Positions 6,001 to 7,324 of a stretch of DNA of 7,324 bases are shown here, one piece after another; the stretch's first letter is position 1, and each line of letters begins with the position of its first letter. The DNA lies in IMG/VR virus record IMGVR_UViG_2690316286_000009. One strand, written 5' to 3'. A program made the position numbers. Source of the stretch: a virus (Duplodnaviria > Heunggongvirae > Uroviricota > Caudoviricetes).

Positions 6001-7324
6001 GCTACAGCTACGGCTTTCCATCCATCAGGTTGTCGCATTCGCGGGGCAGCATAAAGCTCATGCATTCCATCAGGCAGCGAGTGACCCACATACTCACCGA
6101 ACCCGTCAATACACATGCCCCCATCTTCAACAATGCATTCCGCTACAGGCTCTGCTTCCAGTGATGCCAGAGCGATAAGCGCCAGTTCACGAATTTCACC
6201 GCCGTCTATATCGTCAATATCATCGCGGCCAGAAATGTTAGCCAGCCATTGCAGTCGCTCTTTGGTAATAGTGGTCATGCCGTAGCCCCTTCTTGATATT
6301 TTTCAAACCAGAACACAACCGGGTCAGATTTCATTTCAACCAATCCCATACGAACCAGCGCTTTGCCTTTCCCGGACGCAAGGAATTCACGACGACCATC
6401 ACTGATAATTCGTCGATAATCTTCCAGGCTACTGCAATGCTTGTGCAGATTGCATGGGTGGCATGCTGGTACCATGTTGGATATATCGTCACGTTCCTGG
6501 TGAAGCATATTTCCATCAAAACGAATGACCGGTTTTACATGGTCTGCATGCCACTTTTCGCCAAGTTCGCAGCCGCAATAAGCGCAGCGACCACCGAACT
6601 TCATGCGCAGTTCTGCACGTTGTTTTTTCGTCAGTGCCATATCAGCTTTCCTTATACGGATTAATTTTATTGTGCAGTGTGTTGAATGACGCCCATACCA
6701 CGTCGTTATACAATTCAATAACTGGCTCAATTATTTTTCCGATTATCCAGACAAAAATTAGCGGGGATATCGGTGTCATCAACACGATAAACAGAATGAG
6801 AAACAGGAATTCTGTTGTTCTACTCTTTCGCGGATATTTTTTTCTAAATAATGTAACCATTCATTACCGCCCTTTCGAGCGGTCTCCTGATGATTTGAGG
6901 GTGCAGAAATCCCTCCGGTTAAGGATTAAATTTTTAACAGTGCTAAATTTAATTATTCAGTTCTGGATTTTGTCGCCCTGCGTATCCGCGCTTTCGCGTT
7001 ACGCTCAATCTGTATCAGCTTTTCTATATTTCTCCGCCTTTCCTGTTCCTCCTGGCGCAATAGCCTTACATCATCTGCCAGTCTGGTTTCTCTTTTTGCC
7101 ACAGAGAGCATCCAGTCAAACGGCTCCACAACCGCACCGCAGATTTTACAGCGGACCTGACGCTCTTTTTCGTCAACCCGGACAGAGGCGTGATGGCAAT
7201 ATGGTCTTTCCGATGGTTCATAAAGAAAATTAACCTGATTACGTGGGTCATCCTCTTTTACCGGAAATAAAACGATATTGCTTAACTCATCTTGGTGATG
7301 CTGCCAACTTACTGATTTAGTGTA

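Follow-up and report, generated by a model that had tools for sequence, protein, structure and literature searches.

Several described systems come close to the locus studied here, either in the kind of protein encoded or in the way in which translation starts. Small phage proteins that modify the O-antigen, among them Iap of Pseudomonas phage D3, have been described (PMC12373910), and Gnarl1-3 are phage accessory proteins of 40-90 aa that alter the O-antigen (Silas et al. 2025, PMC12373910); these come from KpV79, Mu Mup07 and Mangalitsa, and Gnarl3 binds the cytoplasmic protein GalU (PMC12373910). For phage epsilon15, record AY150271.2 lists an alpha polymerase inhibitor, of 66 aa and with two transmembrane domains, as the product of gene 22, and a transacetylase repressor of 60 aa as that of gene 28. 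With regard to translation, a hairpin in the messenger of T4 gene 38 cuts the distance between the Shine-Dalgarno sequence and the AUG from 22 nt to 5 nt (PMC3014915). The gene and the family that are the subject of this study are themselves already known, since RefSeq annotates an identical protein (WP_000256997.1) as a DUF4014 family protein and Pfam holds the family (PF13198). Described relatives within DUF4014 / PHROG 1832 include L0067 of 933W, H0077 of VT2-Sakai, gp46 of epsilon15, gene 27 of epsilon34, gp39 of ES18 and HK225_057.

The DNA analyzed, hereafter the window, is the whole 7,324-nt stretch of IMG/VR virus record IMGVR_UViG_2690316286_000009. A preliminary description had proposed that it carries a 72-aa AT-rich ORF inserted ahead of an HNH gene and encoding a single strongly hydrophobic helix. 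The ORF is indeed present on the minus strand, running over 72 codons from an ATG at 6860-6858 to a TGA at 6644-6642 (Table 1). Residues 1-71 of its product align with model positions 1-71 of 72 of PF13198 (90 bits against a gathering cut-off of 23.2 bits, E = 1.3e-25), and the match to phrog_1832 likewise covers positions 1-71 of 72 (E = 1.5e-44). The ORF is a full-length member of DUF4014 / PHROG 1832 and a genuine gene, conserved among temperate enterobacterial phages as part of their accessory repertoire. It shares with the known members the length of 72 aa, the invariant motifs and the location in an early ea / nin accessory region, and its product is 93% identical to L0067 of 933W and 51% identical to epsilon15 gp46; nothing substantive differs except that the gene located 3′ is an HNH gene in this allele and the 95-aa L0066 in 933W.

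Table 1. Features at and around the DUF4014 gene (positions in the window)
Feature	Position	Strand	Basis or remark
DUF4014 coding sequence	6642..6860	-	PF13198, PHROG 1832, hydropathy, conservation, AlphaFold2
HNH endonuclease gene, 121 aa	6275..6640	-	ATG 1 nt past DUF4014 stop; family matches
Upstream 118-aa zinc-ribbon-like gene, phrog_1621	6953..7293	-	Family matches
IS1 terminal repeat, ends at window edge	7294..7324	+	Genome matches
AAGGAA Shine-Dalgarno of downstream gene	6648..6653	-	Inside last DUF4014 codons (Y-K-E)
RNA hairpin ACCGCUC-GAAA-GGGCGGU, 7 bp, GNRA loop	6866..6883	-	5 nt 5′ of AUG
AGGAG, candidate split ribosome-binding site	6884..6888	-	Directly 5′ of hairpin
92-nt intergenic linker	6861..6952	-	Alignment

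The gene was found in 1012 of 5426 complete E. coli genomes, with up to 6 copies per genome, whereas a scan of species-representative genomes returned two loci only, from E. coli and Shigella, so that taxonomic breadth is not to be read from that scan. Fifty distinct alleles occur among 89 loci, a sample that includes many near-identical prophages, and the median pairwise dN/dS of 0.19 (1129 pairs) indicates purifying selection. Twenty-four columns are invariant over two subfamilies whose mutual identity is about 50%, and several invariant residues are encoded by varied codons: R14 by four, P33 by three, and N64, N67, P68 and Y69 by two each. Recognizable relatives extend down to the detection limit of the HMM. 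Lack of conservation in related prophages had been named beforehand as the observation that would mark the ORF as spurious; the opposite was clearly found, and the proposal of a genuine small prophage membrane-protein gene is borne out. That conserved junctions for recombination and translation fall at the two ends of the gene could have suggested a spurious AT-rich ORF, or a mere linker delivering ribosomes to the next gene, but the dN/dS value, the invariant columns and the depth of the family contradict such a reading, and its probability is practically negligible. Nor can the conservation be ascribed to an ORF on the plus strand (6634-7233), which overlaps the DUF4014 gene but spans the mosaic junction, and hence has no chance of being conserved in loci with another upstream gene.

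The DUF4014 gene belongs to the nin-type stretch in a lambdoid prophage, bounded by a truncated zinc-ribbon gene at one end and by the gene for the Q antiterminator at the other. On the minus strand of the window, the genes follow one another as zinc-ribbon gene, DUF4014, HNH, a 221-aa gene, DUF551, hok/sok, DUF968, RusA and Q. Distant family members, too, are encoded in rows of small early genes that come after a DnaB-like or a RecT gene. Between 6200 and 7324, a search for sigma-70-like promoters on the minus strand gave none, nor did any terminator-like site turn up, the hairpin upstream of the gene having no U tract; the gene is without a promoter or terminator of its own and is read within the early operon. 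In this window, the first codons of the zinc-ribbon-like gene have been lost through insertion of IS1. The terminal repeat at the window edge is matched at 56,825 places in 4310 genomes, and the IS1A transposase begins 25 nt past the match. Because IS1 sits just upstream, the DUF4014 copy of this particular prophage may not be expressed at all.

It had been suggested that the ORF is compositionally distinct and was acquired as a moron. Its AT-richness is real, with a GC content of about 35.6-35.7% as against 47-53% in the flanking genes, yet the distinctness turns out to be mostly an effect of the amino-acid sequence. GC at codon positions 1, 2 and 3 is 0.34, 0.30 and 0.425, the last value being like that of the neighbors (0.434 for HNH, 0.428 for the 221-aa gene, 0.43-0.45 overall). 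When the same protein is re-encoded with the codon usage of the neighbors, a GC content of 38.3% is predicted, compared to the 35.7% observed, and about four fifths of the deficit is explained by the amino-acid make-up. Since GC3 matches that of the neighbors and amino-acid composition predicts so low a value, the ORF is not compositionally foreign; a low GC content is no evidence of foreign origin when the ORF is short and its product abounds in I, L, F, K and N. A moron would show foreign composition or codon usage, and its own promoter and terminator; here, the composition is not foreign, neither signal was found, and the gene is coupled to the next one at a distance of 1 nt. Strictly speaking, the gene is no moron, and a foreign acquisition is not supported.

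The predicted protein comprises three parts. Residues 1-17 are basic (net charge +5) and include the motif K-x-Y-P-R-x-S-R-x-x-E, predicted to face the cytoplasm; residues 18-41 form the hydrophobic stretch that had been noticed previously (F18-G41, Kyte-Doolittle mean over 19 residues of up to 2.68), in which P30 and P33 are invariant; and residues 42-72 are predicted to fold as an amphipathic helix of ~30 residues, with invariant E45, E49, Y51 and F59, and with LHNKINPY at its end (L-H-N-K-x-N-P-Y in the family). AlphaFold2 places a helix at residues 14-28, a break at P30 and a second helix at 32-66, with a mean pLDDT of 82.5. Three divergent members of the family have net charges at the N- and C-terminal sides of +5 and -1, +5 and 0, and +5 and -2, respectively, and the distant members P0147, P0151 and P0154 retain the basic N-terminus, the transmembrane P-x-x-P and a W-Y...W-N-P tail. 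Topology and structure, as predicted from a shallow alignment of 20 sequences, would thus be those of a bitopic inner-membrane protein, N-in/C-out, with one transmembrane helix kinked at P30/P33. That the gene encodes a real DUF4014 bitopic membrane protein within an early operon is very probable. A Foldseek search against the PDB returned no structural match for DUF4014, and when PDB sequences were searched with a profile, nothing but chance matches to hydrophobic subunits came up (E ~0.5).

A single very hydrophobic helix within 72 aa might also be expected of a membrane-damaging peptide, such as a holin-like or pore-forming protein or a Hok-type toxin, and roles of this kind had been put forward. 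However, the gene is found in the nin/ea early region, outside the lysis cassette and on the side of Q away from the lysis genes; in a near-identical locus, the genes for holin and lysozyme come only after Q and the tRNAs, ~6 kb further on. The ORF matches neither Hok/Gef (PF01848) nor any holin family, and a search for RNA families, antisense RNAs included, gave nothing at 6600-6960, whereas a real hok/sok pair was detected elsewhere in the window, at 4782-5126. In addition, conservation resides mainly in specific polar residues outside the membrane and in two prolines inside it, which fits recognition of a partner better than bulk disruption of the bilayer. A membrane-damaging function is quite improbable, and neither the holin-like nor the toxin proposal is supported.

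Names in circulation for homologues point in another direction. Proteins of g341c, HK225, Salmonella phage P6, ArgO145 and some E. coli genomes are called sugar or O-polysaccharide acetyltransferase inhibitors, which would imply that DUF4014 inhibits a host O-antigen O-acetyltransferase as a lysogenic-conversion function. The g341c record itself derives the name from an earlier RefSeq name of epsilon15 gp46. In the current record of the epsilon15 authors (AY150271.2), however, serotype conversion is assigned to genes 21, 22 and 28, and gp46 is a 'hypothetical protein', and the epsilon34 record (EU570103) gives 'Conserved hypothetical protein' for the homologous gene 27. The label is a superseded annotation. 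The N-terminal half of DUF4014 does resemble epsilon15 gp28 (PRKS...E.LFLI; hhalign probability 58%), but the similarity is within the block-shuffled background (35/2000 by HMM score, 76/2000 by Smith-Waterman), and homology to gp28 or gp22 was rejected after this control; the relationship to gene 28 that a transacetylase repressor of the epsilon15 type would display is not found. Moreover, DUF4014 genes occur in early operons rather than in a conversion module beside tailspike or integrase genes, and they are common in Stx phages of E. coli and also present in a P1-like phage, for none of which a link to O-antigen acetylation has been established. The acetyltransferase explanation is very improbable. 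A further label, 'released from the phage upon host infection', is attached to PHROG 1832, and no evidence behind it was found. Neither name should be propagated.

Superinfection exclusion, in which the protein would block DNA entry of incoming phages, deserves more consideration. HK97 gp15 and T4 Imm are small membrane exclusion proteins, and the size of the DUF4014 product, its single transmembrane helix and the location of its gene in a phage accessory region fit this class in general terms; early-expressed exclusion proteins also exist. On the other hand, since no promoter of its own was found and the early operon is repressor-controlled, the gene is probably silent in the lysogen. PADLOC, whose library is not exhaustive for exclusion proteins, gave no match, and more generally no match to the protein was obtained in defence and curated naming libraries. 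DUF4014 is common to phages with different tails and receptors, and the presence of up to 6 copies in one genome means that carriage does not prevent polylysogeny by relatives. Exclusion is unlikely as the function of DUF4014.

Among the explanations considered, the most likely is that the DUF4014 product acts stoichiometrically, by docking onto a host inner-membrane or periplasm-facing protein, because there is no room for catalysis and because sequence-specific conservation is seen in the transmembrane segment as well as on either side of it. Docking during lytic (delayed-early) development would block or redirect the host protein. Models for such a mode of action are the small membrane proteins epsilon15 gp22, epsilon15 gp28 and D3 Iap, which resemble DUF4014 in being hydrophobic, phage-encoded and, at 60-72 aa, too small for enzymes. 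They differ in having two transmembrane domains recorded or a location in a conversion module, and there is no significant sequence relationship. DUF4014, by contrast, has one transmembrane helix followed by a conserved extramembrane helix and is encoded in an early operon. With Gnarl1-3 the common ground is the concept of non-enzymatic action on host envelope pathways; the proteins are different, and neither DUF4014 nor its motif appears in the supplementary files of PMC12373910. By analogy with these systems, it can be suggested tentatively that the protein specifically binds or inhibits a host envelope protein, and our best explanation as a whole, with the mechanism on a host protein included, falls only a little short of being probable. 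Carriers of DUF4014 have unrelated virions and receptors (Stx podoviruses, P22-like phages, epsilon15, the lambda-like HK225 and the P1-like D6), and this spread gives hardly any hint as to the host protein that would be targeted.

A bolder version, somewhat unlikely, is that DUF4014 represents a widespread and unrecognized class of bitopic plugs with which temperate enterobacterial phages switch off one specific host inner-membrane or periplasmic protein via the invariant LHNKxNPY helix, and that the start region of the gene is a lambdoid counterpart of the T4-type split site and at the same time an exchange patch. If this were true, the users of such plugs during lytic growth would include the Shiga-toxin phages 933W and Sakai. 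In the literature search, no paper containing the term DUF4014 and no experiment on any DUF4014 protein were found, and a search on L0067 gave unrelated papers only. The gene is carried by the classic Stx phages and by roughly a fifth of complete E. coli genomes, which makes it a reasonable target for accessory-gene screens.

We also looked at the two ends of the gene. At the 3′ end, a single nucleotide separates the TGA from the HNH ATG at 6640, and the Shine-Dalgarno sequence of the downstream gene belongs to a fixed ...TATAAGGAAnnnTGAnATG junction. The 1-nt spacing between the DUF4014 stop and the next start is found in all E. coli-type loci, and the junction is kept across loci with nine different downstream gene families. 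DUF4014 is, judging by this TGA-n-ATG arrangement and the Shine-Dalgarno sequence inside its last codons, translationally coupled to whichever gene follows. An obligate DUF4014-HNH pair, which was considered as a candidate, was rejected: HNH is the 3′ gene in 38 of the 89 partly near-identical loci, and eight other families use the same slot. The arrangement is not an insertion ahead of the HNH gene, contrary to what had been proposed; the DUF4014 gene is an exchangeable unit of a mosaic early operon and is not specifically tied to HNH. Conservation of Y69-K70-E71 partly reflects constraint at the DNA level from the downstream Shine-Dalgarno sequence and junction.

At the 5′ end, a hairpin in front of the start codon had been reported as a 5-bp stem at 6864-6881. 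The hairpin is real, but it lies at 6866-6883, with the arms ACCGC/GCGGT at 6866-6870 and 6879-6883, and its stem is 7 bp long. On the transcribed minus strand, the stem closed by its GAAA tetraloop has a folding energy of -12.2 kcal/mol (z = -4.3), none of 200 shuffles folding as well, whereas the plus strand reaches only -6.8 kcal/mol. A second small hairpin at 6898-6916 was no better than shuffles (z = -1.7) and was rejected, and Rfam gave nothing at the hairpin or the linker. The distance from AGGAG to the AUG is 23 nt in the linear sequence and 5 nt with the 18-nt hairpin looped out, which lies within the restored spacing of 5-11 nt of split ribosome-binding sites of the T4 gene 38/25 type. 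At 57 of 90 loci the motif stands ahead of the DUF4014 start. The same cassette, which occurs in front of at least four unrelated gene families, is also found before other genes, with the start codon 4-7 nt past GGCGGTA. GGAG is kept in nearly all copies. Natural variants of the hairpin show single-sided changes only, and no compensatory pairs were seen.

The hairpin is not peculiar to this gene but belongs to a generic AGGAG-hairpin-AUG start cassette, in which it probably brings the Shine-Dalgarno sequence within 5 nt of the AUG, and which probably doubles as shared homology for module exchange. As in T4 genes 38 and 25, a stable hairpin lies between the Shine-Dalgarno sequence and the AUG; the cassette here differs in being repeated before unrelated genes and in coinciding with mosaic junctions. 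The hairpin also buries an alternative AAGGG motif, so that repression is equally conceivable. Together with the fixed TGA-n-ATG junction, the conserved cassette shows how mosaic early regions can swap genes without losing their translation signals. The linker in which the cassette is embedded is common to loci that differ upstream (ArgO145) or downstream (vB_EcoS-689R5).

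Judged by its conservation, the small ORF is a genuine gene, and its product is an already catalogued phage membrane protein without functional characterisation. The 72-codon reading frame was confirmed; it lies on the minus strand and has an ATG start, and its protein is a full-length match to Pfam DUF4014 (90 bits against a cut-off of 23.2) and to PHROG 1832 (E = 1.5e-44); the identical protein at the near-identical E. coli FDAARGOS_944 locus is WP_000256997.1, 'DUF4014 family protein'. Homologues are found in 933W (L0067), VT2-Sakai (H0077), ArgO145, epsilon34 (gene 27), g341c (gene 23), ES18 (gp39), HK225 (HK225_057) and epsilon15 (gp46, 51% identical to the window protein). 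The 89 loci compared carry 50 distinct nucleotide alleles with a median pairwise dN/dS of 0.19 (1129 pairs), and invariant residues use several synonymous codons (four at R14, three at P33, two each at N64, N67, P68 and Y69). The gene occurs in 1012 of 5426 complete E. coli genomes, in up to six copies per genome, and in 47 plasmid records. The preliminary description had taken a lack of conservation in related prophages as the mark of a spurious ORF; given the full-length family matches, the homologues, the dN/dS and the prevalence in E. coli, the family is conserved, and a spurious or linker-only ORF is hardly credible. There is little new in the ORF itself, which belongs to a known family; the points of modest interest are the prevalence of this uncharacterised family in Stx phages, the correction of two annotations that lack support and a recurring AGGAG-hairpin-AUG junction cassette.

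The family is narrow, comprising 27 clusters in a profile search of 1.84 billion representative proteins, and its metagenomic relatives are few and distant. A scan of species-representative genomes found it in Escherichia and Shigella only, and named relatives come from Escherichia, Shigella and Salmonella, the exceptions being one record of a Klebsiella plasmid and one of an 'Actinobacillus phage'. The latter, vB_Apl-pPE4, carries a segment 91% identical to the window's prophage region, DUF4014 included; it is recorded as infecting Actinobacillus pleuropneumoniae, and either its host range or its host assignment is unexpected.

Coordinates of the features discussed, in the window unless another record is named
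Feature	Position	Strand	Remarks
IS1 terminal repeat	7294-7324		last 31 bases of the window
118-aa zinc-ribbon-like gene	6953-7293	minus	first codons replaced by IS1
Hairpin cassette	6861-6890		
Hairpin arms	6866-6870 / 6879-6883	minus (transcribed)	read from the sequence
DUF4014 gene	6642-6860	minus	72 codons, ATG start; TGA at 6644-6642
Constant 3′ junction	6638-6660		
HNH gene	6275-6640	minus	121 aa; ATG at 6640
hok/sok pair	4782-5126		Hok/Gef PF01848, E = 1.2e-23; sok RNA RF01794, 73.8 bits
isrK-like match	4692-4773		25.7 bits, E = 0.021
N runs (masked)	about 1190-1545; about 5085-5114		
g341c gene 24	2582-3004 of locus L005		HNH homologue
HK225_056	2627-3004 of locus L006		HNH homologue
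Phage D6 orf103	2495-2950 of locus L009		151 aa
epsilon15 gene 28	28344-28526 of locus L092		60 aa
vB_Apl-pPE4 segment	11316-12566 of PP818812.1		

The observation of an AT-rich ORF is real, whereas its explanation and the hairpin coordinates had to be corrected. GC content is indeed lower than in the genes around it (about 35.6-35.7% against 47-53%), with 0.34, 0.30 and 0.425 at codon positions 1, 2 and 3, but the third-position value equals those of the HNH gene (0.434) and the 221-aa gene (0.428). Re-encoding the same protein with the codon usage of the window's other genes predicts 38.3% GC against 35.7% observed, the neighbours standing at about 49-52%. About four fifths of the deficit thus stems from the abundance of I, L, F, K, N and Y in the protein, residues with AT-rich codons, and the ORF is mostly not compositionally foreign.

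On the minus strand, DUF4014 follows the 118-aa zinc-ribbon-like gene and is followed in turn by the HNH gene, the 221-aa gene, DUF551, hok/sok, two small genes, DUF968, RusA, the Q antiterminator and a DNA methylase, which is the nin-type region of a lambdoid prophage; the intact FDAARGOS_944 locus has replication genes upstream and lysis genes past Q. In epsilon15 and HK225 the gene likewise lies downstream of replication genes on the same strand, and distant members are found among runs of small genes that follow DnaB-like or RecT genes. By contrast, 933W and P22-like phages carry it in their leftward early operon, in the ea region. DUF4014 is thus a conserved early-operon gene. The suggestion of a moron with its own signals was not borne out, as neither a sigma-70-like promoter on its strand nor a terminator-like site was found between 6200 and 7324.

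Nor is the gene simply inserted ahead of the HNH gene. One base separates its stop from the HNH start, the AAGGAA Shine-Dalgarno of which sits in the final DUF4014 codons; the next gene begins exactly one base past the stop in every E. coli-type locus and after three bases in Salmonella-type loci. The 3′ junction ...TATAAGGAAnnnTGAnATG is constant across the 89 loci, while nine protein families fill the slot behind it: HNH endonucleases (38 loci), DUF551/ead-like proteins (18), an 87-aa family (16), an L0066-like 95-aa family (9) and five rarer families in the rest. Because the sample includes many near-identical prophages, HNH adjacency is not claimed to exceed chance. Upstream, 19 different families occur, and at an alternative 5′ junction the preceding gene ends ...AAAGGAGAGTGA, one base before the DUF4014 start; since this sequence carries the Shine-Dalgarno of DUF4014, many upstream proteins share a K-G-E terminus without being related. 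The HNH homologue itself, directly downstream in E. coli prophages, lies directly upstream in g341c and HK225, overlapping DUF4014 by 4 nt; the name 'DNA Repair ATPase' given to the g341c copy looks mistaken. With fixed junctions and varying neighbours on both sides, sequence comparison indicates that DUF4014 is one interchangeable cassette.

The hairpin before the start codon exists, two bases away from where it had been placed, and is stronger than first described. On the transcribed strand, ACCGCUC-GAAA-GGGCGGU forms seven pairs closed by a GNRA tetraloop (-12.2 kcal/mol, z = -4.3; none of 200 shuffles folds as well), against only -6.8 kcal/mol on the plus strand; no Rfam family matched at the hairpin or linker. 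The 92-nt intergenic linker containing it is kept despite a different upstream gene in ArgO145 or downstream gene in vB_EcoS-689R5. In 57 of 90 loci the DUF4014 start lies 0-10 nt past the end of the motif TCAGGAG-GCCGCCC-GAAA-GGGCGG-TA...ATG, which was found at 17 further sites preceding other genes. In IMG/VR, at least 121 occurrences were chosen by the hairpin alone, and in at least 109 of them a start codon lies 4-7 nt past GGCGGTA; among the occurrences listed, the gene that follows belongs to a 60-aa acidic family (51), the ead-like family (34), DUF4014 (23, plus several dropped by the ORF filter) or one other family. The cassette AGGAG-GCCGCCC-GAAA-GGGCGG-TA(4-7 nt)-ATG thus recurs in lambdoid ea/nin regions before small genes of at least four unrelated families (loci L002, L007, L008, L046-L090 and L093-L211), where it falls on mosaic junctions.

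Directly 5′ of the stem is an AGGAG, whose distance from the AUG is 23 nt along the linear sequence but 5 nt once the hairpin is looped out. The same geometry has been reported for T4 genes 38 and 25, where a hairpin cuts the spacing from 22 to 5 nt and from 27 to 11 nt, respectively, and enhances initiation (PMC3014915). By analogy with gene 38, the cassette may be a split ribosome-binding site, and this geometry together with its recurrence before other genes suggests to us a generic cassette for translation starts, one that would also supply homology for module exchange. A possible alternative is that the hairpin is repressive, since it buries AAGGG, a candidate alternative Shine-Dalgarno. 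The hairpin variants observed are single-sided changes, with no compensatory pairs.

As first described, the protein has one strongly hydrophobic segment; it spans F18-G41, reaches a 19-residue Kyte-Doolittle mean of 2.68 and follows a basic N-terminus. Across the E. coli and Salmonella/epsilon15 types, which are about 50% identical, K7, Y9, P10, R11, R14, E17, L19, F20, L23, F24, P30, P33, E45, E49, Y51, F59, L62, H63, N64, K65, N67, P68 and Y69 are invariant, and the most distant members (P0147, P0151 and P0154) retain the basic N-terminus, the two prolines within the hydrophobic segment and a W-Y...W-N-P tail. Synonymous variation argues that the H-N-K-x-N-P motif is selected at the protein level; conservation of the terminal Y-K-E is in part also imposed by the next gene's Shine-Dalgarno. 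In three divergent members the N-terminal side carries a net charge of +5 and the C-terminal side one of -1, 0 or -2, from which the positive-inside rule predicts an N-in/C-out topology. An AlphaFold2 model from an alignment of 20 sequences (mean pLDDT 82.5) has a helix at 14-28, a break at P30 and a long helix at 32-66, the C-terminal helix being moderately amphipathic (hydrophobic moment 0.3-0.5). The product is predicted to be a bitopic membrane protein. Two ead/Ea22-like proteins (P0135 and P0140) are joined in frame to the DUF4014 N-terminus, which is consistent with its being cytoplasmic. In phage D6, a P1-like phage encoding a lengthened form, the DUF4014 stop is lost and the frame continues into a downstream MATLTKE-type module.

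Conservation is sequence-specific in a cytoplasmic juxtamembrane motif, the two intramembrane prolines and the extramembrane helix. Such a pattern would fit partner recognition over bulk membrane damage, and the protein is probably too small for an enzyme. Our best guess, a tentative one, is that DUF4014 would stoichiometrically bind or inhibit a host protein that lies in the inner membrane or faces the periplasm, and would do so in lytic development, on the model of the mode assigned to gp22 and gp28 of epsilon15 and to Iap of D3; the Gnarl proteins, unrelated to DUF4014, are conceptually close. Superinfection exclusion is unlikely, as the gene is probably silent in lysogens, the family is spread over phages with different entry routes and polylysogens hold up to six copies. 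A toxin or holin-like role is less likely still, given the gene's location and conservation pattern.

Even more doubtful is specific inhibition of an O-acetyltransferase, although several homologues are labelled 'sugar / O-polysaccharide acetyltransferase inhibitor'. According to the g341c record, this label stems from an earlier RefSeq name of epsilon15 gp46. The epsilon15 authors' current GenBank record attributes serotype conversion to gene 21 (beta-polymerase), gene 22 (alpha-polymerase inhibitor) and gene 28 (transacetylase repressor), with gp46 a hypothetical protein similar to L0067; homologous gene 27 is a conserved hypothetical protein in the epsilon34 record, and the epsilon34 genome paper, by overlapping authors, states only that genes 25-28 relate to epsilon15 genes 48-45. 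According to a 2022 review, the proposed inhibitors were never investigated. epsilon15 gene 28 shares PRKS...E.LFLI with DUF4014 residues 10-23 (hhalign probability 58% for the N-terminal half). When decoys were made by shuffling inside hydrophobic and polar blocks, the gp28 score was reached in 35 of 2000 (HMM) and 76 of 2000 (Smith-Waterman) cases (p ~0.02-0.04), so that the likeness, while suggestive, lies within the block-shuffled background; DUF4014 and gp22 showed no similarity. We regard the label as a superseded annotation. For a second one, 'released from the phage upon host infection' (PHROG 1832 and RefSeq NC_004775.2), no support was found in the literature examined, which did not include the primary epsilon15 paper.

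Homology to the intact FDAARGOS_944 locus stops at window position 7293, where IS1 has entered the gene just upstream of DUF4014. The 35-mer at the window end is found 56,825 times across 4310 E. coli genomes; an IS1A transposase gene begins 25 nt past the match. Because early-promoter transcription would have to cross IS1, this DUF4014 copy may be poorly expressed or silent. ORFs spanning the masked N runs contain X residues. Adjoining hok/sok, an isrK-like RNA match falls below the gathering score of 50 and is probably due to chance; the sok RNA itself scores above its gathering score.
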